DNA of 32,000 bases from Candidatus Lokiarchaeum ossiferum (GTDB lineage Archaea > Asgardarchaeota > Lokiarchaeia > Sigyniarchaeales > Promethearchaeaceae), in NCBI GenBank assembly GCA_025839675.1, contig CP104013.1, positions 690,001 to 722,000 on the forward strand. Reading direction: 5' to 3'. This document shows positions 3,588-32,000 of the stretch, in pieces. The stretch's first letter is position 1. Every line of letters begins with the position of its first letter. The position numbers and the translations under genes are program-made. The notes under the pieces are model-generated. The model saw only the letters and a list, made by a program, of their open reading frames with translations. It made no database searches and was not told where the DNA came from.

Positions 3588-3612
3588 TTTGTTTCACCAT
3601 TTTATTTGATTT

Positions 3613-4026: not shown

Positions 4027-4042
4027 TATGAAAAATCAACAT

Positions 4043-5484: not shown

Positions 5485-5495
5485 AAAAAAAAAAA
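5485..5495 (-). terminator. Oligo-T tract (T11) 2 nt after the MFS paralogue 3 stop
   Basis: A11 on the plus strand abutting stop codon 5498-5500. Confidence 0.45.
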
Positions 5496-5497
5496 TT

Positions 5498-6820: not shown

Positions 6821-6839
6821 ATTATTTTATTTGAAAAAG

Positions 6840-6849
6840 AAAAAAAAAA
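6840..6849 (-). terminator. Oligo-T tract (T10, plus adjacent T5) 12 nt after the MFS paralogue 4 stop
   Basis: A10 on the plus strand inside the 41-nt spacer before paralogue 3. It could instead act as the T-rich promoter element of paralogue 3. Confidence 0.4.
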
Positions 6850-6861
6850 CTAATAGAACCA

Positions 6862-8199
6862 TCAATTAGCCAAAACATCAGTATTGATAGGTGATTCGAT
6901 AGGTATTTCTCTACTATTTTCTTCTGTAGAAGTTTGTTCTTGATTTGACTGACTGAAATATTTTTTGGAGGTAATATAAAGGAAGAGATATCCTATTGCT
7001 GCAATAATGGATAAAATACCCGATAGATACCATAAAATCTTACTATCCATATTATCCATAATTGCACCAGAACCTACTATCCCAAACAACATAGGGAAGA
7101 TACTCGACCAGCCATGAACTGCCATATACCTCCCACGTTTATCTTCAGGCGCGAGATTTGCAGCAATTGATTGAGAATAGGGGGCAACAACCATCTCACC
7201 AATTGTTATAATTACCATTGCCAAGAAAGCAAGAGGAATGGTCCCAATAAAGCCATACATCCCGAAACCAATTCCATATAAAATATTACCCGCAGCCATC
7301 ATAATTAGCGCTTGAAATCCTTTGATTTTGTGAGTTAACCAAAATTGCATCACAACAACCATAAAAGCATTCATGGAAATCAGCAACCCATATATATTGA
7401 GGTTAAATCCCAATTCTGCAGTAAGAAATACGGGGAGAGTAGAAATCATTTGCATATAGACTAAGCTCATAATAGCAGAAATAAAAACAAAAATCATAAA
7501 CCGCCAGTCCATGAATACTTCTTTATAACCCCTATCCGATTTTTTTTCTGGAGGGACTGAAGATTGATTTTCAGAGGTCTCAACATTCTGTTCATCCGAA
7601 TTCCTTTTAGTTTCAGGAACTTTAAACACAAAGATTACTGCGGTTATGAATGATGTGATTGCATCTGCTAAAAATATGAATTTAAAGTTCGTTGCCGCGA
7701 GCAATCCACCTAAAGCAGGACCAATCGTGGCAGAAAGATTAACAATGACACGTAATATTGCAAAACCCTCAGCCCTTTGTTCTTTAGGAAGAATATCTGC
7801 AAGCATTGCCTGCCTAGCAGGTCCACCGATTGCCCCTAAAAGACCCATCATACCGACAAGAATGTAGAGTGCTGTCACCGTATGGATAAAAATGAATCCT
7901 ATTGAAAAGAGTCCGCTAATTAGCAATCCAAATAGTGCACAAATCTTCCTTCCAATTTTATCAGTTAAAGCCCCTCCAATCATCCCTCCAAGCATATTCC
8001 CAACTCCAACAATGATAAAAACAAGACCAACTTCCACCATACTAATTCCAAATGCTTGAGTCATATAAATGGCGATAAATGGCATCATCATAAAACCTCC
8101 AATTTGATCAATAAAACTGGAGAATGTGATAACCCAAAATGTTTCCGGAAATTCTTGAAAAGTTTGTTTCATTTTTGTAAACATATTTAATTCTACCAT
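6862..8199 (-). CDS. MFS transporter, paralogue 4 of 4 (most divergent)
   Basis: The track ORF 6862..8232 starts at a TTG. The in-frame ATG at 8199 (MVELNMFTKMKQTF) matches the N-terminal length of its paralogues (MKDNNMFTKMKQTY); ATG 8184 is also possible. Motif A is GGALTDKIGRKI. Same topology, different central loop and a longer C-terminal tail. Confidence 0.85.
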   Translation of the reverse strand: MVELNMFTKMKQTFQEFPETFWVITFSSFIDQIGGFMMMPFIAIYMTQAFGISMVEVGLVFIIVGVGNMLGGMIGGALTDKIGRKICALFGLLISGLFSIGFIFIHTVTALYILVGMMGLLGAIGGPARQAMLADILPKEQRAEGFAILRVIVNLSATIGPALGGLLAATNFKFIFLADAITSFITAVIFVFKVPETKRNSDEQNVETSENQSSVPPEKKSDRGYKEVFMDWRFMIFVFISAIMSLVYMQMISTLPVFLTAELGFNLNIYGLLISMNAFMVVVMQFWLTHKIKGFQALIMMAAGNILYGIGFGMYGFIGTIPLAFLAMVIITIGEMVVAPYSQSIAANLAPEDKRGRYMAVHGWSSIFPMLFGIVGSGAIMDNMDSKILWYLSGILSIIAAIGYLFLYITSKKYFSQSNQEQTSTEENSREIPIESPINTDVLAN

Positions 8200-8318
8200 A
8201 TCATTTTTTCCCAAAATCCACTGTTTTGACAATAGAGTAATTGATTTACGAAATAGAAGAGATTTGAAGTAATAACTTCTGACAATTCAATAAATTTTAG
8301 TTTATGATATAATTAGGG

Positions 8319-13702: not shown

Positions 13703-13847
13703 AAACAAAATAGATTTTGATTTTATTAGAAAATTTGGGTTTATCTCTAAATGGTGGATATCGTGGGATTAAAAAACATGAATATTTTTATAGGAAATTT
13801 CCTTTTACGGATTAAGTTAAATCTAAGTATTAGATTTGGGGAAATAT

Positions 13848-14435
13848 ATGTCAAATAGAAGTCAATTTTGTCCAGAATGTGGAAGACCACTTGGTATTAA
13901 TGATGTCTGCGAAAATTGCGGTCATAATATCAATCTACAAGTAGAAACGCAAGAAAATCTTTCGTCTCCAGCTGAAAAGAAAGAGAACGAATCAATCACA
14001 AACCAAACCCATATAAATCCGCATAGACATCTGTGGAATCCAATTGAAAAAGTTGTAGTTATTTTGGGAACATATGGATGGATCTTTTCAGCAGCAATCT
14101 CATTGTTATTCCTTATACTATCATTTATTGGAGTAATTGCGAGTTTTTCGGCAAATTTTCTGATAGACTTGTTATTTTCGGGTTTTGCATTATTTTTGAG
14201 TGTTCAATATGGAAAAAAATTCGCAGAAAGAGTTAAAGCTCGTGATTGGTACTACATCGTAAATAATGTGTGGATTATTGGTAGCTTTCGGATTCCAAAA
14301 ATGTTGGTAATCGGTTTAATTTTAGTACCTTTGTTAAATTGGTGGGGAGGATGGATTATTTTGCTTCCCGTAATCGCTATTACATTTATCGGACCGGTTC
14401 CAACGCAATGGTCCGTAACTAAAAAAAATAATTAA
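13848..14435 (+). CDS. Zinc-ribbon domain membrane protein (paralogue A)
   Basis: Track start 13836 is TTG; ATG 13848 (MSNRSQFCPECGRPL...CENCGHN) parallels the start of the neighbouring paralogue. It has an N-terminal CxxC-x11-CxxC ribbon, a polar linker, then about four hydrophobic segments. A T12 tract lies 25 nt after the stop. Confidence 0.8.
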   Translation: MSNRSQFCPECGRPLGINDVCENCGHNINLQVETQENLSSPAEKKENESITNQTHINPHRHLWNPIEKVVVILGTYGWIFSAAISLLFLILSFIGVIASFSANFLIDLLFSGFALFLSVQYGKKFAERVKARDWYYIVNNVWIIGSFRIPKMLVIGLILVPLLNWWGGWIILLPVIAITFIGPVPTQWSVTKKNN

Positions 14436-14586: not shown

Positions 14587-15414
14587 ATGAGTCAAACAAT
14601 TCAATTCTGCCCCGAATGCGGAGAACCCATTATTAATGCAGAAAATTGCAAAAAATGTGGATATAATAGCGGTAAATCTAAAACCGATATCTCCTACATT
14701 AGTGAGAAACGACTTAATCTGTGGAAAAAAATCAAACCATCAATAAAATGGATTGGCACATATTCTTGGTTTTTTACAAGCATATTTGCTTTTACGTTTT
14801 TAATTATTGGATTTATCCGAATCTTCACGAGAAATTCTCTTTGGAGTTTCATTTTCTGGGGTCTCGCCTTCGGATTATCACTATACTTCCTGAAGCCCTA
14901 CTCAGAAAAGTACAAAGAAGAACAATGGTATTATTTAGTCAATGATGTCTGGGTTTTGGGAAATCTTAGATTACCTAAGCTGTTAATCCTATCTCTATCA
15001 ATTGATATACTTTTGCTTGGATTTGGAGGGTTGATCACAGTAATCCCGATTGTTTTAGTTATATTTCTTGGTCCGACCCCATATCATTGGTTAACGGACA
15101 CAATCCAAGGTGCCTCTAAACCTCCAAAAGAACCAAAACTCAAGAAAGAAAAAAAAGTAGTAACAAAAGAGAAACTGGTAAAAGCAGAACAAGAGCAACC
15201 TAAAGAAAAGAAGAAGAAACCAGTTGACAAAAAACCAAAAAAAGAACAAGAGATAAAAAAAAAAGTCCAGAAAAATTCATCAGAAAAGAATGATAAACAA
15301 GCCCTATATGATAAATTTAATGCGGAAACAGGTAAAAAGGCAATATGGAAAAATGCAGAAACTAAAGCATATATTGCTTGGGAAGAATCCCAAAATAATA
15401 CAACGAACGAATAG
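14587..15414 (+). CDS. Zinc-ribbon domain membrane protein (paralogue B) with Lys/Glu-rich C-terminal tail
   Basis: MSQTIQFCPECGEPI...CKKCGYN, then about four hydrophobic segments. It shares with paralogue A the block WYY[IL]VN[ND]VW[IV][IL]G[SN][FL]R[IL]PK[ML]L and the ending [FV][IL]GP[VT]P..W. An extra ~110-aa K/E/P-rich tail follows. Confidence 0.8.
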   Translation: MSQTIQFCPECGEPIINAENCKKCGYNSGKSKTDISYISEKRLNLWKKIKPSIKWIGTYSWFFTSIFAFTFLIIGFIRIFTRNSLWSFIFWGLAFGLSLYFLKPYSEKYKEEQWYYLVNDVWVLGNLRLPKLLILSLSIDILLLGFGGLITVIPIVLVIFLGPTPYHWLTDTIQGASKPPKEPKLKKEKKVVTKEKLVKAEQEQPKEKKKKPVDKKPKKEQEIKKKVQKNSSEKNDKQALYDKFNAETGKKAIWKNAETKAYIAWEESQNNTTNE

Positions 15415-15757
15415 TGGCCTTCTTTTGTTTCAAATTGTGAGTTGTACCAATTTTTTTCAATAATTTTTCAATGACATTAGGAGCATATTGAAAGAATATG
15501 GAATTCGAAATATTGCATTGTTCATCATTTAAATGATATATTGAGATATTTATCGAATAACGTAATATTTAGATAAGAGGAAGTTTCAATTTTAGTATAA
15601 GATCATATTCAGATATCACAAATTTTTAAGATAGCTTTGAAAAGCCCCTGAAGCATGAAAGTAGGATAAAACTGAAATTTTTTTTAGGTAGAAAGACTTT
15701 GTTTAATTATCTAACAATTGATTGGAATTATAATTTCTAACGATTAGGTGAAAATGC

Positions 15758-15958
15758 ATGGCAAAATGTCCAGAATGTGGTGGGGAAATGATATCTAAGT
15801 CCAAAAGGAAAATTTGTGAAACTTGCGGATTGAGTTTAACTGGAAGTCAATACGATAGCGCATGGGATAAAATTCGAGATAGCGCCCGAGATGAAGAAGA
15901 TACCTCAAGAAAACGTAATCGCGAATATCTGAATTGGTATGAAAGTTCGAAAAACTAA
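15758..15958 (+). CDS. Small (66-aa) zinc-ribbon protein
   Basis: MAKCPECGGEMISKSKRKICETCG (CxxC-x13-CxxC), followed by a charged helical tail. AGGTGA Shine-Dalgarno 6 nt upstream of the ATG; T8 tract 42 nt after the stop. Confidence 0.7.
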   Translation: MAKCPECGGEMISKSKRKICETCGLSLTGSQYDSAWDKIRDSARDEEDTSRKRNREYLNWYESSKN

Positions 15959-15999
15959 TTCTTCCCGAAAATGCAATTATGATTCATAAGCACTTATCC

Positions 16000-16007
16000 T
16001 TTTTTTT
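16000..16007 (+). terminator. Oligo-T tract (T8) 42 nt after the 66-aa zinc-ribbon gene stop
   Basis: T8 run read directly from the sequence. Confidence 0.4.
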
Positions 16008-16181
16008 AATCTATTTCTGTGCCATCAACCCCAACCATAGTATTTAAGAAATTAATTAAATAAGATTAAATATACCCTAAATGTTATTTTATGTAGAGCT
16101 TAAGAAGAAAATTGATCAGAACAATCGAATCAATGACATATTTATAAGTTCTATTTGAAAAATTTGCATTATGTGATAGGA

Positions 16182-17379: not shown

Positions 17380-18387
17380 TTATTGAATTTTTTCTCCTGT
17401 GATTTCATTTGTATCTGGATCCATAAAGAATTCGAAATCGAAATGTACATGCTGGATCTGGACTAATTCTTCTAACATTTTTATTACAACTTTCATATCC
17501 TTTGGTCGATCTGCGGGCTCATATTGAGACATCTTCTTAACAACTTCATTATATTCAGTCGGAATATACCAATTTATGCTTTTTGGACTTAAAACATAAT
17601 CATCGTTATTTAAAATCTCAGAATCTTCTCGCATTATCCCGCCGGTGAAAACAAAATACATTAAGTGGGATAAATAATAAATATCTGAGGCGGCAGTAGG
17701 CATATATCCAAATTTAATTTCTGGAGGTGCTCCTTTTTGAGTAATGGGAATATCCATAGGCATTTTATCAGTCATGTATGGTTTGGGAGTATGAAAAATC
17801 CATTCTTCTCCAACATATTTTGATATTCCCCAATCGATTAAAACGGGCCAAAAATCATGAAGGTCATCTTCATCTTCTTCTTTAATGATGATTATGTTAT
17901 TCAGAGAAAAATCGCGGTGGACAATAAATTCATGGGAATGACAATAATCTAAATGTTTAGCTAAGGGAATGAAAATATTTCTAACAATACTGGACAAATC
18001 AAGATTTTCCAACCCTCGAGATGACTGAATAAATTCGCGATAAAAATCCAAAAATGTAATCCCTTTGATCAAAGAGAGTACCACATAATATTCTGGAGTT
18101 TGCAAATCTTCTTTCTTTTCATAGTGCAAGACTTTAACACAATGATTTCCGCAATTGGCTTGAGCAATAGTATTTAAGACTTCATTATCAAAGAACTCAG
18201 CACAATCATTTTTTTTTGTATATGGATCATAATATTGCTGATAAACAAATTCTTTTATTGCCACTTCTTCACCTGTTTCGGCATATTCGGCGAGAAATAC
18301 GGTGGAGAGTCCTCCCTTTCCTAAAATTTTTTTTACATTGAATGTGAATCCATCAATTTCTATAGATTTCCCAATCGTAATCGGCAT
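17380..18387 (-). CDS. Eukaryote-like Ser/Thr protein kinase (ePK fold) with atypical catalytic-loop and DFG residues
   Basis: 335 aa. Gly-loop GKGGLSTV, VAIK lysine (EVAIKEF), catalytic loop HRDFSLNN (17896..17919), DWG in place of DFG (17827..17835), APPE in place of APE, and a subdomain XI Arg (EPADRP). GGAGA Shine-Dalgarno upstream. Lies 22 nt downstream of the preceding gene. Confidence 0.85.
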   Translation of the reverse strand: MPITIGKSIEIDGFTFNVKKILGKGGLSTVFLAEYAETGEEVAIKEFVYQQYYDPYTKKNDCAEFFDNEVLNTIAQANCGNHCVKVLHYEKKEDLQTPEYYVVLSLIKGITFLDFYREFIQSSRGLENLDLSSIVRNIFIPLAKHLDYCHSHEFIVHRDFSLNNIIIIKEEDEDDLHDFWPVLIDWGISKYVGEEWIFHTPKPYMTDKMPMDIPITQKGAPPEIKFGYMPTAASDIYYLSHLMYFVFTGGIMREDSEILNNDDYVLSPKSINWYIPTEYNEVVKKMSQYEPADRPKDMKVVIKMLEELVQIQHVHFDFEFFMDPDTNEITGEKIQ

Positions 18388-18409: not shown

Positions 18410-19402
18410 TCAGACAGAGTAATCCCACTCAGTGCGGCAAGCTTTGCAATAGTATTTTTTTGCATATTTTTTTACAGGAAAATAGGCGATAACTTTCTTT
18501 TTATTTTCTTGTTCAGCAAATTCTTGTTTGTCACATTTCGGACATTTAATTGCGCCATCAGATGGATATTCAATAGTTTGAATTCCATGAGTAGGGGCTT
18601 GAGATGAAGATATGGTAGATTTTGGAGATTTTGAATTTTCTGGTTTTGAATCTGAAGTTGAAATGGATTTTTCTTTTGTATCAGAGCGTGATTTCAAAAT
18701 ATCCGATGGTTTTCTGGAGACAACATCTTTAGGTGGTGATTGACGAGAAGAAATTTTTTCTTGAGACTGAGCTAATCCCGGGGAGATATAAGAAGATTTC
18801 GTAGTGGATGTGTTCGATCTAGTATCTTTATCTGGTAGTGTTTGCATGGAAATCGATTGTGAAGAAGATAATTGTTCAATTATCTGATCAATTTTAGTTT
18901 CGATGGAATGATTCTGTTTGCCCAAAGAAAACATACCATTTTTCAGTTGACCCATCAATTTTTCGGGGGATAAGGGGGCCGCTTTTTCTTTTTCAATTAA
19001 GTCATTTAGTTGTTTTTGAAGATCACTATTTTTTTGTTTTTCTTCAGCTAAGGTTAGTTTCATTCCTTCGATATCTGTTGCATAGCTTTTTGAAGATTCC
19101 TGCAGATTGGAAGCATTTTGTTGAGAATTCTCAAGTTCCTTTTGAAGCGTGATAATTTTTTGAGACAATTCTTCAATTTTTTGATCTTTTTCGATATTTT
19201 GTGAGGTAAGAATATCAATGGTTGTATTTGCTTCCATTTTCCCCGTTTGATCAGATGAAACAGAGGCGTTCTTTAGTTCATCAAGCTCTACTTGTAATGC
19301 ATTTATTTCCTTTTTTTGCTTTAATACTTGTCCCCTCAATGCATCCTTCATTTTAGCGAGTTTTGCAATTTCATCTTCTTTGATTTTAATTAATTCTTCC
19401 AT
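18410..19402 (-). CDS. Coiled-coil protein with Ser/Thr/Pro-rich linker and C-terminal zinc ribbon
   Basis: 330 aa. Residues ~1-180 are heptad-like and Glu/Lys/Leu/Gln-rich (KEINALQVELDELK, IITLQKELENSQQN, LQKQLNDLIEKEK). Residues ~180-270 are low-complexity Ser-rich with SP/SPPK/SPKS motifs. The C-terminus is CPKCDKQEF-x24-CKACRTEWDY. GAGGA Shine-Dalgarno upstream. Confidence 0.75.
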   Translation of the reverse strand: MEELIKIKEDEIAKLAKMKDALRGQVLKQKKEINALQVELDELKNASVSSDQTGKMEANTTIDILTSQNIEKDQKIEELSQKIITLQKELENSQQNASNLQESSKSYATDIEGMKLTLAEEKQKNSDLQKQLNDLIEKEKAAPLSPEKLMGQLKNGMFSLGKQNHSIETKIDQIIEQLSSSQSISMQTLPDKDTRSNTSTTKSSYISPGLAQSQEKISSRQSPPKDVVSRKPSDILKSRSDTKEKSISTSDSKPENSKSPKSTISSSQAPTHGIQTIEYPSDGAIKCPKCDKQEFAEQENKKKVIAYFPVKKYAKKYYCKACRTEWDYSV

Positions 19403-21161: not shown

Positions 21162-22088
21162 ATGAACCAACCAAAAATCGCACTTATGGGTTTAGATAAT
21201 GCAGGGAAGACATCAATAGTAAGGGTGTTAAGTAGAGAATTTGAAAATATAAGCAATTTATCGCCCACTACTGGTATTGAACGTCATTATTTAGAGTTGT
21301 TGGATACGAAAATAATGATCTGGGATTACGGAGGTCAAAAATATTATCGCGAACAATTTCTAAAATCCTCTAAGATTAACCTTTCACAAACAGATGTATT
21401 ATTGTACGTGATTGATATTTTAGATAGTGAAAGATATGAAGAGTCATTAGATTATTTAAAGCACATTTTTCAAAGACTTTTTGAGAACAACCACCAGTTT
21501 CATTTTGGAATTTTATTTCATAAATTTGATAACATTGAAGATACAACTTTTCGTGACTACATGAAGAATTTGCTCCACGAAATAGTTAAAATGTTAGGAA
21601 AGTCTCCAATTCCAATCGAATTTCGGAAAACTACCATTAATAATCCTCTATCTATTATCGATTCCATATCAAAAATGATTTTTAAATTTGAAGGATTTAC
21701 AAACCCAATATCAAATTCATTAACGATTTTTGCAAATAAATGGAATTTGAGCAGCATTCATTTATATGCAAGTAAAAAAATTGAATTGGGATCTTATTCA
21801 GTAAAGAAACCCCCTACTTCAGAAGTAAAAAAGGAATTACTTGCGTTTATAAAAAAGTATGATACAATTTTAGATGTCGTTTTTAAGTTAGAAAAAGAAA
21901 TTAGACAAGAAACTTACCATTTCACCAAATTCTATTTGAATACAGGCAATATCCCTAATCCTATTTATTTAGTTTGGTGTTCAAAAGTTTCTATGTCAAA
22001 GAAATTCGAAAATGGATTATTTAGCCTTAAAGAATCGATTAAGACACTTTTATCAAATATTAACATAAATCAACCGATGTTAAATTAA
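21162..22088 (+). CDS. Small GTPase of the Arf/Sar/Rag superfamily fused to a ~140-aa C-terminal alpha/beta (roadblock-like) domain
   Basis: 308 aa. G1 is GLDNAGKT (21189..21212, identical to the Sar1/Arf P-loop). There is a switch-I Thr in SPTTGIE. G3 is WDYGGQ (21321..21338) and G4 is HKFD (21519..21530; His replacing the Asn of NKxD, as in Rag/Gtr). The length and the C-terminal half with alternating strand/helix propensity resemble Rag/Gtr architecture. Confidence 0.8.
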   Translation: MNQPKIALMGLDNAGKTSIVRVLSREFENISNLSPTTGIERHYLELLDTKIMIWDYGGQKYYREQFLKSSKINLSQTDVLLYVIDILDSERYEESLDYLKHIFQRLFENNHQFHFGILFHKFDNIEDTTFRDYMKNLLHEIVKMLGKSPIPIEFRKTTINNPLSIIDSISKMIFKFEGFTNPISNSLTIFANKWNLSSIHLYASKKIELGSYSVKKPPTSEVKKELLAFIKKYDTILDVVFKLEKEIRQETYHFTKFYLNTGNIPNPIYLVWCSKVSMSKKFENGLFSLKESIKTLLSNININQPMLN

Positions 22089-22447
22089 CAAATTTTATAA
22101 TTTTTTTACTTGTAGCATTATTATTTAAAAAAATGACTCTATTTTGAGATATGAAAATTTGAATAGCATTACAAGTAGTATGATCCCTTGATATGATAAA
22201 TTAATGAAAACACTAAAAACAGCAGAATTTTTTCTTAGATCATCTTAAAGAAAGAAATTTTAAGCTGAAACCAAGTTGCTTATCGAAATATATCTCAGAA
22301 AAAATAGCTATAGTGTCCCTTTTTAAATCATTCATTTTTTATTCTTTTTGCTCTATATAAACAAAATCGATTTTTTATACAAAGGTATTTAGAATCAAAA
22401 ACACTACGTTTTTCATTATTCAAACAAAAAAAAAAAAAGTGATATAA

Positions 22448-25400
22448 ATGAAGTTTAAAAAAATTTCTTCCCTTGCAATGCTTTCTTTAATATTTATACT
22501 TCCTGCATTAAATTCAATTACCCAGATCTCACCTCGCACAGAATTTTTTGAACCAGTCAGTATTTTACCAGATGAGAGATCAATTAATAATCCTTTATTA
22601 AAATCAGCAGCATCCGCATATCCGTGGTGGAATGACACCTACGAATACCGTATCCCGGTTGTGTTAAACCCTAATGGTGTATCACATGATAATGCACCGA
22701 TAGAATTTCGTATAGATTTCGCTTCAATTTTAGACGTTTCAGGTAATCCCATCTCAGACGAACATGTTAATACAACAAATATCCAAGTTATAGAGCAGAC
22801 GACATCAGGAGGTTTCACACAATATGTTAATCAATATGATCCACTACCACTTTCAAATGGTGACGAAGGAGAAATCGCCTGGATTATCGATCAAACAGGA
22901 TTTAGCACCAATAAAACATTCTTTATTTATTTTTGTTTAGGAGATACTGATAAATATGGTGATCCAGTTTATGATTCGCCCTATTCCCGCAGTTTATCGG
23001 ATGACCCTATTCGATTGTTCCATAATGGATTTGAAGAAGGAACTGTGGCGCCATTAGATCCATTTATGACATATAGTACGGATTATGGAGCAAGTACAGT
23101 AATTTTAAATGATTATACAACAGGAATTCAAGGAGAAGGTGCTTTAGAGATACAAGGTGATATATGGGCAATGCAAGCATTACCTGCATCAATAGATACG
23201 ACAGATCCAACATATTCAAATCTTTTTTTAACCTATCAAGTTCAAGCTTATGGTTTAATCAATAAATTTGATTATATGGCCATGGGAGTAGCCGCTTCAG
23301 AAAATGATTTTTATTGGCGTGGATATCAACATTGGGGAGAAGATTCCCATGTAAATTTGTATTCTGACTCCATTTCAAGTGCTAATGTTTGGAATTATTT
23401 TGCTATGGATTTACAAACGACTGTTGATTATCCGGATGGATTGGTAAATTATGTTTTATTTATACTGGAAGATAGTGACATAAAGAGAAACGATGATAAT
23501 CGATTTTATTTTGATGATATTTCAATCTGGAATCAAGAAGTTGGACAACATCAGACAACTGATGTAGAAGTAGATATTCAAGCACTTGAGATACCATTTG
23601 CGAGTATTAACCTTCTTGTTTTAGATTCTGATGGGAATGCGCTTCCAAATGCCAATGTTGAAATGAAAAAAAGCGGTGAAGAAATTTATTATTATGGAAC
23701 TACTGATGAAAACGGTCAAATTTCATTTACTGATATAGATTCAAGTCAAGATTATGATTTTACTCTAAATTATTCCACCCAAGGCATTGAAGCTGCTGAA
23801 ATTTTTAATATTGCATCGGAATCTTTCAATAGTGATTTACAAGATATTACTATCTTTGCCGATATATGGACGATGAATTACAGTGTCACGGATTATGATG
23901 GTGATATTTTCAATGACGGCTATGTTGTGCTCTACAATAATACTGCAGCTCAAGAACCAGTCGGTAATGTCACTTTAGATGGTAGTGGCAATTCAATAAT
24001 TCGATACTCCAATAAAACGGACAGCTATAACTATAGCGTCTTTTATGATACGAATTTGTTCGACCAAGGAACCTATGCAACAAATCAACTTGAAATTGCC
24101 TCAGATCTCATCAGTTCAACCCAAAATGAATTAGTCAGCGCAAATATATCTACATTGACATTCAATGTATCTGGCTACACTTCAACAGATACAAGTTCCT
24201 TGGGATATGCGTCTTTAGAAATTACAAATGGTACTTATGGGGATTCAATTGCAAATATCACAACCGATTCTGCAGGATTTGTTGATTTTTTGTATTTTCG
24301 ATCAAATAACTCAGTATTAAACAATTATACTATGCATCTTAAATTTTTAGGTGGAAATCAATCAATAAACGCAACAGATACACCTCAACGGTCGCCTAAA
24401 CTTGGTGGTGAATGGCAAGATTACCTCAATTTTAGTCTTGATACAAAAATGACAAAAGATATTTTAGTTGATTTTCTCGATGATGTTGAATATTCAACGA
24501 ACATCACAGCCGTATCATTTTCTTCAGGAGCCAATTTCAACCCAGATTGGGGAGAACTCTTAGAATTCCAGGTTAATTATACATCATACGATGGAGATTC
24601 TGTAATTTTAACAGATCCCGATACAATAGAATATGAAATGTATGATACAGCCTTGAATTTAGTGAAGAGTGGAACTTTAGTGAAGCATTTAGAAGGTATT
24701 TATAATTTAACTTTAGATTCATCCGAATTTATTGCAGGTTTCACATACAGGTTAGATTTTATTGCCTATAAGTCGGGTTATCCATCTCCAACAAATACTC
24801 CAAATGCCATTATTAAAATTGAAAAGTTAGGAACTACATTTGAAATATATGACGCATCAACAGGTTTAGCGATAGATGGACAAACAATAAATAAAACATG
24901 GGGGGAGATCTTTGATGTGGAAGTAGTTTATAAATTACAAAGTCCTGAAGAAGAATTATCAGGAGCAACTGCAATATTGGATTGGGATTATGATGTGGAA
25001 GCATCCATGGTTGAGCAAAACTATGCGGGATTTACCAATTATACATATTCCGTAAATACATCTAAATCTCCAACGACAGGTCTATTTGATTTCGATTTAA
25101 CTGCAGATTTATTGAACCATACTTCTTTAGCTTCTTGGTTTAGATTAGAAATCCTTGAAATTCCCACTGCAATAAATCGGGATGCCTATACAGATCCGAT
25201 TACCCTATATTGGGAAGAAAATTTCACGATGTCCTTGAATTATACCGATACTTTCAATAACGTGGGTATTGAGGAAGCTTATCTTTACTACAATATTGTT
25301 GGTGACCCAGATTTCAATGAATATCCAATACCGGAAACAGGAACATCAGGAATCTACGAGATAACTTTGAATTCCACATCTTTTGGAGAAGCTGGAACTT

Positions 25401-28400
25401 ATACATTCCAAATTGTTGGGCAGAAAACGAACTATGAAAATCAACAATTATGGATTTCGGCAGTAATAAATATTGTCCCAACGATACTTACAGCAGAATC
25501 AATTGAATTAACACCCTATTGGAATCAAAATTTTACTTTGTCCTTGAATTCGACAGACACTTATTTTAATCGAGCGATTAATGATAGTTCAATTACCTAT
25601 TCTGTTTCTGGTCCAGCGAGCTTTAGTGAATCAGGTGAGATAAATTTTGTAGGGAATGGAATCTATGAAAAAGAATTCAACACAACCCACTTTAACCAAG
25701 CGGGATTATATACTTTTCAACTTGAATCAACCAAAAATCAATATGAATCCCAACTACTGACAATCACCGTAGAGATTCAAATTGTTCCCACTACCTTATC
25801 TTCAAATCATAATGATGATAAAATAACAAAGCCATTAATTTCCGCACCATTTGACATTTCGGTGCATTTTGAGGATGTATTAAATTCTTTAAATATATCT
25901 GATGCCACTGTGTCATATAGTGCAACCGGCCCAGAAAATTTTGCTGATTCAGGAACAATGATACATGTTGGAAATGGAAATTACAATATTTCGGGCATAG
26001 ATCCTGCTACTGATTATGGTTCAATAGGAACCTACTCATACCAGATAATCGCCACCAAAAATCAATTTGAAACACAATATATTACAATCACAATAAATAT
26101 AGGGATAATTTCGACAAATCTTACATCCAACCATCAGAATAATGAAATAAGCGTGTATTGGGATGAAGATTTCACACTTAGCATAAATTTTCTGAAATAT
26201 GATGACAGTACACCTATTAGTGGAGCAACAATCGCCTACGTGATAACAGGCCCGAGTAGTTATAGTAGTACAGGAATTTTAGATTATATTAGTGATGGTA
26301 TCTATTCTCAAGATTTTGATACCAATGTTGTTTATTCGACCGCAGGTACCTATACATTTGTCATTTCAACGAATATATCAGGATATGAATCTCAGCAAAT
26401 CACAATTTCCTTGACGATTGAAACAATTCCAATGAATTTATCCACAAGTAACACAGAATTGACTATTTTTTGGGAAGAAGATTTTACTCTTTCGGTAGAT
26501 CTTGCCGATGGAAGAAATTCAAATGCAATCACATCGGCGTTAGTGAGTTATTCAGCTGCAGGAACAGGAAGTTATTCGGATATAGGAACACTCACTCATG
26601 ATGTGGGAAATCCGGGCACATATCGAATCACATTTAGTACTCAAACATTTAATCAAGCCGGTATTTACACATTTAGTATTTCAGCAACAAACCAATATCA
26701 TATTGAACAATCGCTAACGATTACTATCAACATAAATACTCGAGAAACAGCGATTTCAACACCTAGTACTGAAATTGGAATTTCATATGATGATAGTTTT
26801 TATTTGAATATTACATTCACAGATGTTTCATATCCAGCAAGTCCGACAGGTATAAGCGGTGCAACAGTTAGTTACAGTGCATCCGGACCAAGTAGTTATA
26901 CAAGAGTTGGGATATTAACCTACAATATTAATGGAAACTATTTAATCCAATTTAACGCTTCTGAAGATTTCCCACAAGAAGGGACATATAATTTCTTAAT
27001 TACTGCGACCAAAAATCAATATGAAACTCAACAAGTCTCGATAACAGTAAATATCAATATTATTAATACTACGCTGACGGCCACTGAAGATTATATTAAT
27101 AAAATTGCAGGAGAATCATTCACACTTTCCGTTTTATACTATAATGTTACGAATGGAGAGACTCCAGTGAATGGCGCCACTGTATCATATACACTATCAG
27201 GATATTCTGGTGCATCATTAACTGAAGATGGAGCAACGGGAAATTATTCCATCCAATTGAATGCAGATGATTTCGGAACTGGCACATTCACTTTCCAGAT
27301 TACAGCCACTAAAAATCAATTTGAAACTCAACAACTCCTGATAACCGTTGATATAGGGTTAAATGCAATGAACTTGACGGTTTCTCTAATTGAGAATCCA
27401 GCCCAGATATATTGGAATGACAATTTCACCCTGAGTGCAGAATTGAAAGAAGACGCAGACTTTGTTGATGAAGCTATTGTATCCTATTCGGTTATTAACT
27501 ATCCAAATATTAATGGAACTTTTATGGAAGGTACCAATATATATACAATTGAGTTCAATTCTTCCTCTTTCCCCGAAGCAGGTTCGTATTCGTTTGAAAT
27601 TGAAGCAACAAAAACAAATTACGGAACCAGAACAAAAACAATCATAGTCATTATTAAGATTGTTCCAACGAATTTCACCTCATTGCACGTGGAAGATACG
27701 ATTAATGCCCATTGGGAAGAAGATATCACGATCTTTGTCAATCTGACAGATATTCAAGACACTAACAATGCCATCAACATAACGGATGCAAGCGTTACCT
27801 ATACGGCAGCAAGTTTAGCCGCCTTTAGTGGCCCGTTGACACATTCGACAGGAGGTTTGTATTACCTTTCCTTTAATGCGAATGATTTTGGTGGAGCGGG
27901 ATCCTACACAATTAAAATTACTGCCCAAAAAAATCAGTTTGAAACCCAACAACTCACCATTACGGTGATCGTTGAAATTTTGCCCACAATTTTGGTGAAT
28001 GAAAATAGTGATTCGGTCGGCTATTGGAAAGACGAAGTCACCTTTTCATATAATTTTACCGAAACTTTTACTTCCACACAGATAACTGACGGTGTGATAT
28101 TATATTCGGTGGAACAGATCCCATCTCTCACAGGGACATTAATACATCAAACAGAAGGTATCTACACCGTTTCATTAAATACAAGCCAATTTTTGAGTGC
28201 TGGAACCTATACAATTCACCTTGAAGCCACTAAATTCCAATATCAAACCCAAACTAAATCTCTCACTTTAACGATTTCCATTTTACCCACTAATGTTTCT
28301 ATTATTGCGGAAAATGTTGTTGTTTATTGGGAAGAGAATTTCAGCCTCTTGGTAGGATATGCTGATACCCATAATGATATTAATGTAACCGATGCGATTG

Positions 28401-31400
28401 TTTCATCCAACTTAGTAGGAAGTACATTGTATAATAACTTATTAACCTACATTGGAAATGGATTGTACTTGTTAGAATACAACACAACAGAATTCCCAGA
28501 TGCAGGGAACTATACGTTCCAAATAAATCTTGGAAAAAATCAATATGAATCCCAACAAACATGGATCTATGTGCAAATTAATATTCTTCCTACTCACATT
28601 TCCTCTGAAAATGAAAGTATTGTAATTTACTGGGAAGATTCCTTTACATTATCTGTTGACTATGTTGATACACACAATAATAATCGATCGATAAGCGGAG
28701 CAACTGTAGCATTCTTACAAAGTGGGGAATCTGTTTATAGAACTATGAATTATCAAGGAGATGGAACTTATACTTTTGTTTTGCAATCAGATATTGATTT
28801 TACAGAAGCGGGACCTTATGAATTTTTAATTGAAGCTAAAAAGGATCAATATCAAACGCAAATATTTTGGATCGATGTTGAAATTTTGATTGTCCCAACA
28901 AATGCGAGTTCTAACCACAATAATAATAAAATTAACAAAGAACTTGTCGATTCATTCCAAATCTCAATCAATATGGAACAAATAATTGAGGTGCTTAATC
29001 CGATAGGGATCCCTGATGCAACAGCGACATTCAGTGTATCAGGACCAGAGGGATATAGTGCTCAAGGATCCTTATCCCATATTGGATCGGGAATTTATAA
29101 TAGTTCGATAATCCAAGCGAGTGCAGAATATGGCGGAATAAAAGGAACTTATGTCTACCAGATTACAATTACTAAGAATCAATATGAAACTCAATATTTG
29201 ACAATTACTGTTAATATTGCAGTAACTCAAACAATTTTGACCACGAATCATCAAAATGATGAAATTAATGTGTATTGGGATGAAGATTTTGTCTTGAATG
29301 TAACTTTCTCAGTATTAGAAGATACAGTTCCTATTACGGAAGGTACAATATCTTTTACAATGACTGGACCTGGAAGCTATACAAATTCAGGTAGTTTAAC
29401 CCATATGGGCTCAGGCGTCTATGAAAAGCCCTTTGATACAGATTCAGTATTTACATTAGCAGGTACATATACATTCTATCTCACTGCAACAAGGTTAGAT
29501 CATGAAACCCAACAAAAATCAATATCTCTAACAATATCAATAATACCTACTAACTTAAGTTCGATTGTAGGTTCTTCCGTTTCCCTATTTTGGGAAGAAT
29601 CGTTTACGATTGCTGCTAATCTAACAGATGGTAGGGACAATACACCTATCACAAGTGCATTACTGCAATATACTGTCACAGGTACGGGAGATTATTCAGA
29701 TGTGAATATACTAATTCACCAAACAGATGTTCCAGGAACATATAATCTGACTTTTAACTCGATTAATTTTGGTCAAATTGGAACGTATAATTTTTTGGTG
29801 ACTTCCACTAAATCCCATTATGTTTCCCATCAATTCACAGTGACTGTACATATTTTAATCCGAGAAACTGATTTTATGGCAGAAGAAACAGACATTGATA
29901 TCACCTATGATGAAAGTTTCTTGATCAACACAACATATACAGATATTTCCCATCCAACAATTCCTCAAGGAATTTCTGGTGCAACTATAAGTTACACCGC
30001 GACGGGAGATAATAGTTATGTCATGGTGGGAGAATTGACTTATATTACAAACGGGCAATATGGATTTACTTTTATTGCAGATGTGGTTTTTCCTCAAGAA
30101 GGAACCTATTCATTCCAAATAGTTGCAGAAAAGGACAACTATGAAACAAAACAATTGACAATCACGGTAAATGTCATTGTAGTTTCCGCAAACTTGAGTG
30201 CATCTGAAGAATTGATTTCAAAGAGTTGGGAAGAAAACTTCACCTTAAGTATTTTGTATACAAATATCACAACTCCAGGAAGTCCATTGGGGATTGAAGG
30301 TGCCACAGTGTCTTATACAATTTCTGGATTGCCTGCATACTCAGGATCCCTTGAAGATGTGGGTTTGGGAAGATATGAACTGGAATTGAATACAAGCGAT
30401 TTTACAGAATTTTCTGATTCAGGAACATATGTTTTTCAAATTACTGCTGAAAGAAATCAGTTCCAAACAAAACAAATCTTGATCTCCCTTGAAATGGATT
30501 TAAAACAAATGAATGTTACAATAACGCTTGTTCAAAATCCAACTCAGATATTTTGGGGGGATAACTTCACTCTAAATGCAGATCTTAAAGAAGAAGAAGG
30601 ATTTGTTACAGGAGCAACTGTTTTTTACACTGTTTTGGATCATCCTACAATATTCGGAAATTTCTCTGAAGGTGGGAGTTTATATTCAATTCTGCTAAAT
30701 TCGACTATTTTCCCAAATGTTGGTTCATATACCTTCGAAATTGAAGCATCAAATGACGGCTATGGAACACGGACTAAAACATTTGTTGTTGAAATTAAAA
30801 TTGTACCAACGGAATTACTTTCTTTACACATAGACGATACAATCGAAGCATATTGGAATGATCCTATTACCATGAGTTTTCAATTCACCGATATTCAAGA
30901 TGAAATATCTCCCACATTCATTACTGGAGCCAAAATTACATACACTGCTACTAAATTAACACCCTATACTGGCAATTTAACTTATCAGGGTGATGGAATT
31001 TATAGCTATTCATTCAATGCAAGTGATTTTGGTAAATCTGGAACCTATTCAATTCAAATTCGGGCAACTAAAAATCAGTATTTATCACAGCAACTTGTTT
31101 TAACTGTTGAGGTCAATATCCTTGAAACCAGTTTGGAAACTGATGCTTTGAATTTGGATGCATTTTGGTTAGACGAGGTGAATTTTACGGTTTCCTTCCA
31201 AGATGTTACAAACAGTGAAATGATAACAAATGGAAATATAACCTTTTCAGTATCTCAGGTTCAAGGGTTAAATGGAACAGTAACTCATATGAATTCTGGA
31301 ATCTATTCCATAACATTGGATACAACACAATTTCTTAAAGCAGGGGAATATACCATTGTATTTGAAGCGAAAAAATTCCAATATGAAACCCAAACATTAT

Positions 31401-32000
31401 CCTTCATATTGGACATAGTAATACTTCCAACAGCCTTTACTACTGATCAATACAATATTAATATTTTATGGGAAGAGAACTTTACCATAACAACTCATTA
31501 TTCAGATACGGAATATGACAATAATATTAATGATGGAGAAGTAAAATTCACAGTGGGTCAAGTTTCAGGCCTTTCAGGAAATCTTACAGTAGAAGGAAAT
31601 GGAAATTATAATATAGAATTAAGCTCTACGCAATTCCTTGGGGTGGGAACTTATTCCATTTTTATTCAAGCAACAAAATACCAACATCAAACAAGAGATA
31701 TTTTAATTTATTTAACAATCAGTCGAATTGATACTACTATCAATCAATCGATTTTCTTACAAAGTGATGTTGTTATGAATGTTACTACTTCAAATGTATT
31801 CCATTTCAGTTATATTGATCAATATGATCGATTTATCGAGAATGCAACAATCGCTTATTACGAATTACAAAATGGTAATACGATAACTTCTGGCACACTT
31901 GAATACCTCGGAAATGGAATCTATGAACTCGATTTGGATCTTGAATTGAAACCGGTGGGGACTTATTTGATAGTTATTCATTTGGGAATTGAAAATTACT
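22448..32000 (+). CDS. Giant secreted/surface repeat protein (more than 3184 codons in window, 3' end beyond the right edge)
   Basis: Absent from the ORF track because there is no stop in the window. ATG 22448 is preceded by GTGAT. Signal-like N-terminus MKFKKISSLAMLSLIFILPALNS. Hand translation of 22448-23640 is stop-free, and frame checks at 25730 and 31664 give the same frame (position mod 3 = 2). Domain content by eye: a DUF2341-like start (YPWWNDTYEYRIPVVLNP); a possible jelly-roll region; about three carboxypeptidase-regulatory-like beta-sandwiches (e.g. LVLDSDGNALPNANVEMKKSGEEIYYYGTTDENGQISF); then at least 22 modules of ~105 aa. Only short ORFs occur in the other five frames here. Confidence 0.9.
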   Translation, partial: MKFKKISSLAMLSLIFILPALNSITQISPRTEFFEPVSILPDERSINNPLLKSAASAYPWWNDTYEYRIPVVLNPNGVSHDNAPIEFRIDFASILDVSGNPISDEHVNTTNIQVIEQTTSGGFTQYVNQYDPLPLSNGDEGEIAWIIDQTGFSTNKTFFIYFCLGDTDKYGDPVYDSPYSRSLSDDPIRLFHNGFEEGTVAPLDPFMTYSTDYGASTVILNDYTTGIQGEGALEIQGDIWAMQALPASIDTTDPTYSNLFLTYQVQAYGLINKFDYMAMGVAASENDFYWRGYQHWGEDSHVNLYSDSISSANVWNYFAMDLQTTVDYPDGLVNYVLFILEDSDIKRNDDNRFYFDDISIWNQEVGQHQTTDVEVDIQALEIPFASINLLVLDSDGNALPNANVEMKKSGEEIYYYGTTDENGQISFTDIDSSQDYDFTLNYSTQGIEAAEIFNIASESFNSDLQDITIFADIWTMNYSVTDYDGDIFNDGYVVLYNNTAAQEPVGNVTLDGSGNSIIRYSNKTDSYNYSVFYDTNLFDQGTYATNQLEIASDLISSTQNELVSANISTLTFNVSGYTSTDTSSLGYASLEITNGTYGDSIANITTDSAGFVDFLYFRSNNSVLNNYTMHLKFLGGNQSINATDTPQRSPKLGGEWQDYLNFSLDTKMTKDILVDFLDDVEYSTNITAVSFSSGANFNPDWGELLEFQVNYTSYDGDSVILTDPDTIEYEMYDTALNLVKSGTLVKHLEGIYNLTLDSSEFIAGFTYRLDFIAYKSGYPSPTNTPNAIIKIEKLGTTFEIYDASTGLAIDGQTINKTWGEIFDVEVVYKLQSPEEELSGATAILDWDYDVEASMVEQNYAGFTNYTYSVNTSKSPTTGLFDFDLTADLLNHTSLASWFRLEILEIPTAINRDAYTDPITLYWEENFTMSLNYTDTFNNVGIEEAYLYYNIVGDPDFNEYPIPETGTSGIYEITLNSTSFGEAGTYTFQIVGQKTNYENQQLWISAVINIVPTILTAESIELTPYWNQNFTLSLNSTDTYFNRAINDSSITYSVSGPASFSESGEINFVGNGIYEKEFNTTHFNQAGLYTFQLESTKNQYESQLLTITVEIQIVPTTLSSNHNDDKITKPLISAPFDISVHFEDVLNSLNISDATVSYSATGPENFADSGTMIHVGNGNYNISGIDPATDYGSIGTYSYQIIATKNQFETQYITITINIGIISTNLTSNHQNNEISVYWDEDFTLSINFLKYDDSTPISGATIAYVITGPSSYSSTGILDYISDGIYSQDFDTNVVYSTAGTYTFVISTNISGYESQQITISLTIETIPMNLSTSNTELTIFWEEDFTLSVDLADGRNSNAITSALVSYSAAGTGSYSDIGTLTHDVGNPGTYRITFSTQTFNQAGIYTFSISATNQYHIEQSLTITININTRETAISTPSTEIGISYDDSFYLNITFTDVSYPASPTGISGATVSYSASGPSSYTRVGILTYNINGNYLIQFNASEDFPQEGTYNFLITATKNQYETQQVSITVNINIINTTLTATEDYINKIAGESFTLSVLYYNVTNGETPVNGATVSYTLSGYSGASLTEDGATGNYSIQLNADDFGTGTFTFQITATKNQFETQQLLITVDIGLNAMNLTVSLIENPAQIYWNDNFTLSAELKEDADFVDEAIVSYSVINYPNINGTFMEGTNIYTIEFNSSSFPEAGSYSFEIEATKTNYGTRTKTIIVIIKIVPTNFTSLHVEDTINAHWEEDITIFVNLTDIQDTNNAINITDASVTYTAASLAAFSGPLTHSTGGLYYLSFNANDFGGAGSYTIKITAQKNQFETQQLTITVIVEILPTILVNENSDSVGYWKDEVTFSYNFTETFTSTQITDGVILYSVEQIPSLTGTLIHQTEGIYTVSLNTSQFLSAGTYTIHLEATKFQYQTQTKSLTLTISILPTNVSIIAENVVVYWEENFSLLVGYADTHNDINVTDAIVSSNLVGSTLYNNLLTYIGNGLYLLEYNTTEFPDAGNYTFQINLGKNQYESQQTWIYVQINILPTHISSENESIVIYWEDSFTLSVDYVDTHNNNRSISGATVAFLQSGESVYRTMNYQGDGTYTFVLQSDIDFTEAGPYEFLIEAKKDQYQTQIFWIDVEILIVPTNASSNHNNNKINKELVDSFQISINMEQIIEVLNPIGIPDATATFSVSGPEGYSAQGSLSHIGSGIYNSSIIQASAEYGGIKGTYVYQITITKNQYETQYLTITVNIAVTQTILTTNHQNDEINVYWDEDFVLNVTFSVLEDTVPITEGTISFTMTGPGSYTNSGSLTHMGSGVYEKPFDTDSVFTLAGTYTFYLTATRLDHETQQKSISLTISIIPTNLSSIVGSSVSLFWEESFTIAANLTDGRDNTPITSALLQYTVTGTGDYSDVNILIHQTDVPGTYNLTFNSINFGQIGTYNFLVTSTKSHYVSHQFTVTVHILIRETDFMAEETDIDITYDESFLINTTYTDISHPTIPQGISGATISYTATGDNSYVMVGELTYITNGQYGFTFIADVVFPQEGTYSFQIVAEKDNYETKQLTITVNVIVVSANLSASEELISKSWEENFTLSILYTNITTPGSPLGIEGATVSYTISGLPAYSGSLEDVGLGRYELELNTSDFTEFSDSGTYVFQITAERNQFQTKQILISLEMDLKQMNVTITLVQNPTQIFWGDNFTLNADLKEEEGFVTGATVFYTVLDHPTIFGNFSEGGSLYSILLNSTIFPNVGSYTFEIEASNDGYGTRTKTFVVEIKIVPTELLSLHIDDTIEAYWNDPITMSFQFTDIQDEISPTFITGAKITYTATKLTPYTGNLTYQGDGIYSYSFNASDFGKSGTYSIQIRATKNQYLSQQLVLTVEVNILETSLETDALNLDAFWLDEVNFTVSFQDVTNSEMITNGNITFSVSQVQGLNGTVTHMNSGIYSITLDTTQFLKAGEYTIVFEAKKFQYETQTLSFILDIVILPTAFTTDQYNINILWEENFTITTHYSDTEYDNNINDGEVKFTVGQVSGLSGNLTVEGNGNYNIELSSTQFLGVGTYSIFIQATKYQHQTRDILIYLTISRIDTTINQSIFLQSDVVMNVTTSNVFHFSYIDQYDRFIENATIAYYELQNGNTITSGTLEYLGNGIYELDLDLELKPVGTYLIVIHLGIENY
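25160..32000 (+). repeat. Tandem array of about 22 coding modules of 300-325 bp (~100-108 aa each) inside the giant ORF
   Basis: The recurrent module ends ...AG.Y.F.I.A.K(N)QYE[TS]Q...I.V.I.I(V/L)PT and the next begins ...[IVL][YF]W[ED]E[ND]FT[LM]S. By-eye boundaries: 25160, 25475, 25785, 26100, 26425, 26740, 27055, 27355, 27660, 27975, 28280, 28585, 28895, 29220, 29545, 29860, 30175, 30490, 30800, 31120, 31425, 31730. Two more divergent modules probably precede these (about 24440-25160). Confidence 0.85.
25785..32000 (+). repeat. Higher-order repeat: ten-module cassette (~3.1 kb) present twice in tandem (block A ~25785-28894, block B ~28895 to beyond 32000)
   Basis: Module n of block A matches module n of block B much better than it matches its own neighbours. 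Anchors: identical 20-mer GTGTATTGGGATGAAGATTT at 26153 and 29270 (offset 3117 nt = 1039 codons); GAAATTGAAGCA at 27596 and 30737 (offset 3141 nt = 1047 codons). Unusual linkers correspond position for position (NINTRETAIS / HILIRETDFM; DIGLNAMNLTVSLIENPAQIYWNDNFTLSAELKED / EMDLKQMNVTITLVQNPTQIFWGDNFTLNADLKEE). Confidence 0.8.

Follow-up and report, generated by a model that had tools for sequence, protein, structure and literature searches.

Introduction

The closest described counterparts of NEF87_000608, a giant protein of the Asgard archaeon Candidatus Lokiarchaeum ossiferum, come from bacteria, eukaryotes and archaea. Its gene starts in a 32,000-nucleotide (nt) stretch of contig CP104013.1 (positions 690,001 to 722,000 of the forward strand; hereafter "the window") and runs past the end of that stretch. 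Bacterial RTX adhesins (MpIBP, LapA and SiiE; structures 6xi1, 6xi3 and 5irb) resemble it in design, with tens of ~100-amino acid (aa) β-sandwich modules, a distal ligand-binding region and a length that varies by repeat gain and loss, and they are among its best fold matches. Features of their own are type-I secretion, retention at the outer membrane, stiffening by Ca2+ and the RTX repeats. The cadherin-catenin and integrin-talin/kindlin systems and the immunoglobulin cell adhesion molecules (IgCAMs) of eukaryotes follow the same design of signal peptide, tandem β-sandwiches, single transmembrane (TM) helix and short conserved tail; their tails recruit a conserved soluble adaptor. The MG-domain fold is shared with alpha2-macroglobulin (A2M) and complement C3, C4 and C5, and archaeal S-layer glycoproteins (PGF-CTERM proteins; SlaA/SlaB) are likewise acidic, sequon-rich, secreted and held in the membrane at their C-terminus.

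In cultured Lokiarchaeia, the cell surface lacks an S-layer and displays "complex surface proteins"; the cells form membrane-membrane contacts, and their crawling depends on adhesion and actin (PMC9834061; 10.64898/2026.02.13.705702; 10.1101/2025.11.30.690169). Thin densities bridge membranes in L. ossiferum. Crawling was found to depend on adhesion and on Lokiactin, with no adhesin identified (10.1101/2025.11.30.690169). The searchable literature names no molecule behind these surface contacts and crawling, and in the literature that we searched, whose coverage was incomplete, no description was found of the giant-fiber family or of the gene cassette reported below.

Identity and integrity of the giant gene

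The frame that opens at position 22448 on the forward strand runs without a stop for 3184 codons to the window end at 32000. At a stop-codon frequency of 0.075 and 33% G+C, the probability of such a frame arising by chance is ~1e-109. It was missing from the list of open reading frames (ORFs) only because ORFs running off the source are omitted there. Its translation is identical, over 3184 of 3184 residues, to NEF87_000608 of strain B35 (UYP44323.1; P0154 in our protein set), a 3420-aa protein labeled "hypothetical protein" in GenBank and automatically named "Cadherin domain-containing protein" in UniRef. The initial annotation, made from the sequence of the window, had stated that the frame stays open from 22448 to the window end and that the protein must be larger, and both points were borne out by the stop-free translation and the identical 3420-aa protein: 236 aa (708 nt) lie beyond the window, whose end falls inside module 24 of the stalk described below. 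The genes next to the giant (Orc1/Cdc6, a eukaryote-like protein kinase and a Gtr1/RagA-type GTPase) already suggested an Asgard archaeon. A first protein search confirmed this with only three matches among 5.8 billion proteins, all from Lokiarchaeum-type genomes.

A very long, repetitive ORF without an annotated function could have arisen through mis-assembly, or it could be a pseudogene in decay whose frame has stayed open in the repeats by chance. Besides the chance probability given above, several observations contradict this. The direct DNA repeats within the gene are 60-78% identical and are thus too diverged for collapse, and strain B36, whose genome was closed independently (CP163304), matches the 9552 nt at 98.2% nt identity, with 173 substitutions and without a single indel. 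Together, these two results ruled out mis-assembly and repeat collapse, and the assembly across the repeats, which the initial annotation had wanted verified, proved sound. Comparison of the two strains revealed 93 synonymous and 66 non-synonymous codon changes, indicating purifying selection on the gene, and a syntenic ortholog and hundreds of homologs are also intact. The artefact explanation is refuted, with next to no probability left to it, and the evidence strongly supports NEF87_000608 as a real, intact gene under purifying selection.

Architecture and membrane topology

The part of the gene inside the window was divided into the following features.

22448..32000 (+): first 3184 of the 3420 codons of NEF87_000608, a predicted giant type-I surface protein; stop-free, identical to P0154, compared with B36
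22448..22528 (+): Sec-type signal peptide, aa 1-27 (MKFKK, a hydrophobic core and ALNS); the sole N-terminal hydrophobic segment, with an inferred cleavage site
22529..23602 (+): distal, lineage-specific head, aa 28-385, starting with a DUF2341-like WW..Y.YR motif
23603..24502 (+): about three CnaB/prealbumin (CarboxypepD_reg)-like β-sandwiches, aa 386-685, suggested by sub-threshold Pfam matches, a partial AlphaFold2 (AF2) model and Foldseek
24503..25168 (+): stalk modules 1-2, divergent immunoglobulin (Ig)/MG-like, aa 686-907; 63-64 bits with the module hidden Markov model (HMM); mean identity with the remaining modules 22-25%
25169..28285 (+): super-repeat copy A, modules 3-12, aa 908-1946, from self-BLAST and module-by-module best partners
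28286..31423 (+): super-repeat copy B, modules 13-22, aa 1947-2992, delimited in the same two ways
31424..32000 (+): modules 23-24, where a partial third super-repeat copy begins; truncated by the end of the window

Past position 32000, module 24 is completed and followed by a single degenerate module; a TM helix (aa 3313-3337) then leads into a tail of 83 aa (aa 3338-3420). All full-length family members have exactly two hydrophobic segments, one at the N-terminus and one at the C-terminus; in the giant, the N-terminal one spans aa 6-27, in agreement with the signal-like N-terminus noticed at the outset. With a net charge of -297 in the ectodomain and +6 over tail residues 1-30, this arrangement is as expected for a type-I protein whose tail is cytoplasmic. 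On sequence grounds, it is thus strongly supported that NEF87_000608 is a type-I membrane protein with a huge, predicted Ig/MG-like ectodomain. The ectodomain carries 85 N-glycosylation sequons, against 52+/-6 in shuffled sequences (z 5.2), recurring at fixed module columns, as well as the single Cys of the 3420 aa.

An anchor of the archaeosortase/PGF-CTERM type had been suggested for the C-terminus. This suggestion had to be abandoned: the PGF motif occurs nowhere in the 3420 aa, and the true C-terminus consists of the TM helix followed by the conserved 83-aa tail. In contrast to S-layer glycoproteins, the giant has no PGF motif, ends in a long conserved tail where they have a short basic stub, is modular and much longer, and has a coupled partner; SlaB was among the weak fold matches for its N-terminal sandwich region. 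LPXTG, RTX GGxGxD, RGD and thioester CGEQ motifs were searched for in the giant protein and none was found.

The stalk: tandem modules and super-repeats

Using an iterated module HMM, we delineated 24 tandem modules up to the window end, beginning at aa 686-699, each ~104 aa long with a period of 100-118 aa. The long array of ~105-aa modules proposed by the initial annotation was thereby confirmed. An exhaustive profile search placed 25 modules in full-length NEF87_000608; the family delineated below is defined by at least four such ~104-aa modules in tandem. A full stalk of 25-26 Ig/MG-like modules is strongly supported.

The modules are themselves arranged in a higher-order repeat. Self-BLAST aligned super-repeat copies A and B at an offset of ~1040 aa with 40-51% identity, and the best partner of module i was module i+10, at 42-57% identity versus a background of ~32%. 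The syntenic ortholog from a related Lokiarchaeum (P0002) contains a third whole super-repeat, with 35 modules and 4495 aa, and length alleles of 3420 and 4495 aa therefore occur at one syntenic locus. Relatives with 13, 25 and 35 modules suggest that stalk length changes in steps of one 10-module super-repeat.

The initial annotation had been unable to name the repeating module, and rightly so: no Pfam family reached its threshold in the whole protein or in 44 single modules, and NCBIfam gave no match for the giant protein. Weak module matches were scattered over the Ig-like families Invasin_D3, Shr-like_HID, THSD1_N, InlK_D3, PKD, Big_1 and Big_3_5, with Big_1, Big_3_5, Invasin_D3 and PKD appearing below threshold only, in 3-9 of the 44 modules. 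When the module profile was compared with PDB sequences, only desmoglein-2 was matched, over 32 residues (E ~8e-4). An AF2 model of modules 4-6, for which non-overlapping module triples were aligned in register, was all-β with 7-8 strands per module (pLDDT 93.6, pTM 0.72), and its confidence remained high through the linkers, whose consensus is I.I.PT.L. In Foldseek searches, the MG domains of A2ML1, C3, C4, C5 and CD109 ranked at the top (E ~1e-12), and RTX-adhesin extender repeats (6xi1, 6xi3 and 5irb), FdeC and Hoc were also matched, all at 7-15% identity. The profile search, the Foldseek search and the three-module prediction that had been recommended for naming the module thus point to an Ig/MG-like fold and to no curated family; judged from the model, the module is an Ig/MG-like β-sandwich extender domain outside curated families. 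The initial annotation had reasoned that a match to a known Ig-like, cadherin or PKD family would make the protein a conventional adhesin, and such a match exists for the generic fold and not for family membership.

We considered here whether the giant belongs to one of the known families of conventional adhesins (cadherin-like, Big/invasin-like or RTX-type) and came from bacteria. The automatic cadherin name in UniRef and the marginal desmoglein-2 match would fit a cadherin; however, there is no Pfam Cadherin match at E<=1 for the whole protein or at E<=0.1 for the 44 modules, and the inter-domain Ca2+ motifs DxNDNxPxF, DRE/LDRE and DxND are absent from the 3420 aa. Invasin_D3, Big_1 and PKD were matched and RTX extender repeats and FdeC were found as fold relatives, but the former stayed below threshold and neither GGxGxD nor LPXTG occurs in the sequence. 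A type-I topology with a cytoplasmic tail, and named relatives that are all Asgard, also speak against such an origin, which we regard as very improbable and largely refuted.

Comparison with the described systems leads to the same result. Unlike RTX adhesins, the giant carries its head distally, at the N-terminus behind a Sec signal peptide, and ends in a TM helix and a conserved tail; it also has a coupled partner and an archaeal host, and in place of GGxGxD repeats and a type-I secretion system signal it combines an N-terminal signal with a C-terminal TM helix. Matches to the A2M and complement families were weak (Pfam MG2, bMG3 and MG4, with MG2 at 27.4 bits against a cutoff of 32.8), and the thioester CGEQ motif, the bait region and the TED and CUB domains are missing. 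With the eukaryotic adhesion receptors there is no detectable sequence homology in ectodomain, tail or partner, nor are there cadherin Ca2+ motifs, and the resemblance is one of design and not of shown descent. The giant belongs to none of the cadherin, Big/invasin, PKD, MG/A2M and RTX families.

The N-terminal head and sandwich region

The head (aa 28-385) had no Pfam match. It was present in 4 of the 151 top family members (the P0001-P0004 group), and outside this group it was found in two partial Lokiarchaeia proteins with 27% identity. The initial annotation had proposed a DUF2341-like start. This was not supported: Pfam gave no DUF2341 (PF10102) match in the head even at E<=5, and when the head was aligned by hhalign with the true DUF2341 head of a relative, the probability was 23% over only 36 columns covering the WW..Y.YR motif, which lie upstream of the segment modeled by Pfam. 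The relative used is a 1355-aa protein (locus L013) with the same stalk, tail and partner, whose DUF2341 domain scored 86 bits. What the giant has in common with DUF2341/LamG-headed surface proteins is the WW..Y.YR start, without a PF10102 match, and membership of its head in DUF2341 is unsupported.

The region between head and stalk had been described as about three carboxypeptidase-regulatory-like sandwiches, and this description stands qualitatively, but not at the level of Pfam. The segment aa 382-444 gave sub-threshold matches to CarboxypepD_reg, Big_1, SpaA and MG4; for CarboxypepD_reg, the score over aa 387-443 was 24.8 bits, short of the 32.3-bit cutoff, and no part of aa 386-650 reached the threshold. 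In the AF2 model of the N-terminal region, only aa ~384-533 were confident (pLDDT 70-83). Foldseek matched the region to TIE, BcpA, SpaA, RrgB and SdrD with E-values of 1e-9 to 1e-5, with low TM-scores because the rest of the model was unreliable. Where the model is confident, it looks similar to CnaB/prealbumin-like domains found in Gram-positive pilins.

A translationally coupled partner gene

At the orthologous locus in B36 (L003), a 376-aa ORF begins 2 nt past the stop codon of the giant gene; in B35, the partner is encoded by NEF87_000609, directly after NEF87_000608 in locus-tag order. At all 14 loci with a complete upstream gene, a homolog of this partner, 365-381 aa long, begins between -1 and +2 nt relative to the stop of the giant gene, and the same junction is seen at a fifteenth locus (L012), which is truncated by its contig. 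The cassette was found at paralogous loci in one Harpocratesius genome, on a Helarchaeota contig and in three tandem copies in B36, and all genes upstream of the partner bear the module and tail signatures. At every junction, GGAGG is embedded in the last codons of the giant gene, so that its C-terminal Gly-Gly coincides with a GGAGG Shine-Dalgarno sequence (L003:20240-20267 and the equivalent sites in L006-L018). A role of this Gly-Gly as a ubiquitin-like or sorting signal was rejected because of the overlap with the partner's GGAGG at every locus; it probably reflects a constraint at the nucleotide level and not a protein motif. We regard it as strongly supported that the giant is obligatorily and translationally coupled to a cytoplasmic partner gene.

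The partner is a soluble protein (maximum KD19 0.96) with at least 673 homologs of 365-385 aa, all from Asgard archaea where named. No Pfam match was obtained for 18 diverse members, and two profile searches, one of them with 18 sequences, returned no significant PDB relative. The by-eye likeness of its N-terminus to a longin/roadblock domain and of its C-terminus to a winged helix is an impression on which no weight should be placed.

The tandem array in B36 (L014/L015; CP163304, ~1.953-1.982 Mb) comprises at least three cassettes, with giants of 2290, 2005 and 2380 aa, one of which has a Laminin_G_3 head, followed by a gene of >728 aa. Its three partners differ by 80-93 nt, corresponding to 74-85 synonymous versus 1-5 non-synonymous codons, while the tails of the three giants are only 59-74% identical. 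Gene conversion was rejected as the explanation for the near-identical partners, as almost all of the differences are synonymous; they reflect strong purifying selection, and some homogenization may have contributed.

Across 11 cassettes, tail divergence correlated with partner divergence (r=0.88, Mantel p ~2e-4), compared with r=0.31 for the last extracellular module. This sequence-based correlation shows co-inheritance of tail and partner and does not prove binding. The conserved tail together with the strongly constrained, coupled partner is the new element of the system.

An Asgard family with variable heads and a conserved tail

To place the giant among its relatives, the module profile was searched against 1.84 billion cluster representatives, which yielded 1652 at E<=1e-3, of which 271 reached E<=1e-30. 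Many members are 2000-5500 aa long with 8-32 modules, and stalk length ranges from 4 to 35 modules across the family. All members with a named organism belong to Asgard lineages: Lokiarchaeota/Promethearchaeota, Harpocratesius, Helarchaeota and Thorarchaeota. Among the top 151 members, a TM helix with the tail was recorded in 118 and the tail without a TM helix in 71. The juxtamembrane motif of the family is roughly Y.r..s.P..VRkI.k.IK.I.KGK.p.....v.sREE.i..L, and that of the close subfamily, present in P0154, is RIP.IIK.ID.TKK.I.GNK...W..LDLDL (in short form IP..[IV]K.I...K.I...W..LDLDL); the tail motif had no Pfam family match. Other heads in the family were DUF2341, Laminin_G_3 and a weak FG-GAP match. 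Sequence comparison thus strongly supports an Asgard-restricted family in which heads and stalk length vary and the tail is conserved. Paralog counts per genome are lower bounds, because a genome scan with a five-sequence tail profile found only five loci.

Some members (P0009, P0034, P0044, P0021, P0144 and P0095) carry an additional 180-400 aa of cytoplasmic sequence past the tail motif. In distant members, these extensions consist of repeated helical units (E..L+.EL...G....E.....Q........L.E.L) that are blank in Pfam and, in one case, of an alpha/beta-hydrolase domain.

The conserved tail also raises the question of a transmembrane sensor, in which a ligand or mechanical load would be relayed via the tail to the partner acting as a signaling or transcription factor. 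The conserved juxtamembrane tail, the coupling and the extreme conservation of the partner would suit a sensor, as would the long helical-repeat or alpha/beta-hydrolase extensions of some relatives. One source names the partner homolog P0217 an "ArsR family regulator", but this is a single automatic label, and neither a helix-turn-helix nor any other signaling domain was detectable in the 18 diverse partners. Small GTPase genes lie near several cassettes, yet this adjacency is not kept at paralogous loci. We consider a sensor of this kind improbable.

Proposed function and competing explanations

We favor, as the probable overall reading, a type-I surface adhesin or receptor fiber coupled to a cytoplasmic adaptor. 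The Sec signal peptide would export the extremely acidic, sequon-rich ectodomain, which would carry the head at the far N-terminal end of the stalk, followed by about three CnaB-like sandwiches and then the 25-26 Ig/MG-like modules. The C-terminal TM helix would anchor the fiber and leave the 83-aa tail inside the cell. An Ig-like module is ~4-5 nm long, and the stalk would thus hold the head on the order of 100-140 nm off the membrane. The head may bind a ligand outside the cell (on a partner cell or a surface, or a glycan, for example), and the co-translated partner may bind the conserved tail 1:1 and link the fiber to an intracellular anchoring, clustering or signaling system. The parts of this reading differ in strength. 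A surface-anchored fiber is very likely; for an adhesive or receptor role the evidence is evenly divided, and a physical complex of tail and partner could equally well turn out to be right or wrong. The earlier proposal of an adhesin or envelope fiber is upheld in its core, a secreted, modular fiber at the surface for which the Ig/MG-like extender fold makes such a role reasonable, and not in its PGF-CTERM anchor or its DUF2341 head.

Several observations weigh against this reading. The AF2 model of the N-terminal region, made from a five-sequence alignment, had a pLDDT of 43 overall and 20-50 in the head, and no fold, including the possible jelly-roll or lectin-like one of the initial annotation, could be assigned to aa 28-385. 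The correlation of tail and partner divergence may simply mirror duplication of the cassette as a unit. Virtually identical partners appear to serve three giants whose tails differ by 26-41%, so that any recognition must rest on a shared motif, or else the partner may act in biogenesis. An excess of sequons need not mean glycosylation: the highlights of a glycoproteomic analysis of one Asgard archaeon report just a single highly glycosylated protein (PMC11284389). Through neighboring genes, WP/UYP accession offsets and molecular weights, the giant was identified as BKKHKHCJ_00628 / GNAMCCOK_00615 and the partner as 00629 / 00616. Neither is among the entries listed in the accessible part of the B36/B35 proteome and Lokiactin co-immunoprecipitation (co-IP) tables, in which neighbors are listed; the Gtr1/RagA GTPase encoded directly upstream is likewise not among the entries listed there.

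The same data bear on a structural explanation, according to which the giants form a disordered, proteinaceous envelope or "glycocalyx" that replaces an S-layer and serves as a spacer or protective brush, with the partner acting in biogenesis or anchoring. Cryo-electron tomography shows unordered surface-protein layers and no S-layer, the ectodomain is very acidic and sequon-rich, and there are many paralogs per genome, with at least four cassettes in B36, all of which would fit a coat. The main coat protein should be abundant, however, and the giant is not among the ~900-1300 most abundant proteins listed in the accessible tables, although proteomics under-samples giant membrane proteins. Moreover, swapped heads (LamG, DUF2341, FG-GAP-like and others) on a conserved stalk and tail typify ligand-binding proteins. 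A coat is possible but unlikely, and the adhesin or receptor fiber remains the explanation that we prefer.

A more specific version of the adhesin reading would be an Asgard integrin- or cadherin-like adhesion system, in which the head binds surfaces or syntrophic cells and the partner adapts the tail to Lokiactin or to small-GTPase signaling. We regard this as quite unlikely. If true, it would supply regulated adhesion for protrusion-based crawling and cell-cell contacts, and it would constitute a prokaryotic counterpart, whether analog or forerunner, of eukaryotic receptor-adaptor logic. A link to the cytoskeleton or to signaling would be relevant to the way in which the archaeal ancestor of eukaryotes regulated its contacts with surfaces and partner cells. 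Without such a link, the family probably still represents a large share of the Asgard surface proteome, and it would still be a useful example of stalk-length variation through super-repeat gain and loss.

The analysis provides named candidates for surface or adhesion proteins of Lokiarchaeia, namely NEF87_000608 with NEF87_000609 and the tandem array around NEF87_001531-001536. The module, the tail motif and the coupled partner form a family signature that can be searched in any Asgard genome. A prediction that follows is that the partner binds the conserved tail and ties it to an intracellular component.

Upstream region and other genes in the window

Two features lie immediately upstream of the giant gene.

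22089..22447 (+): AT-rich intergenic region, presumed from its sequence to contain the promoter, with TATATAAA at 22353-22360
21162..22088 (+): Gtr1/RagA-type small GTPase gene, directly upstream of the giant (Pfam Gtr1_RagA, 89.5 bits)

No repeat family was found in the intergenic region. The Gtr1/RagA GTPase gene is syntenic in B36 and in an ENA contig, and absent upstream of the paralog P0003 and at the tandem-array locus. It is a conserved neighbor at orthologous loci only, and may or may not be associated with the cassette. Small GTPase genes also occur a few genes from the cassettes of L013 (2326-3261) and L018 (10753-11487).

Three genes upstream of the giant, 18410-19402 (-) encodes a 330-aa coiled-coil protein with a C-terminal Zn-ribbon, which corresponds to GNAMCCOK_00612 (36.98 kDa). 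In the accessible part of the published tables, this protein was detected in every one of the 16 B35 proteomes and showed significant enrichment in the Lokiactin co-IP, with a log2 fold change of 1.91 and an adjusted p of 0.012 (10.1101/2025.11.30.690169). Upstream of it, 17380-18387 (-) encodes a eukaryote-like Ser/Thr kinase (Pkinase, 56 bits) that lies tail-to-tail with an Orc1/Cdc6 gene. The 740 nt upstream of Orc1/Cdc6 (15415-16154) are non-coding and contain short, weak repeats without a clear origin-recognition-box family. Two adjacent genes at 13836-14435 and 14587-15414 (+) encode paralogous membrane proteins with an N-terminal double zinc-ribbon, the second with a Lys-rich C-terminal extension. 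Finally, four tandem, very similar paralogous genes at 1605-8232 (-) encode major facilitator superfamily (MFS) transporters of 437-456 aa.

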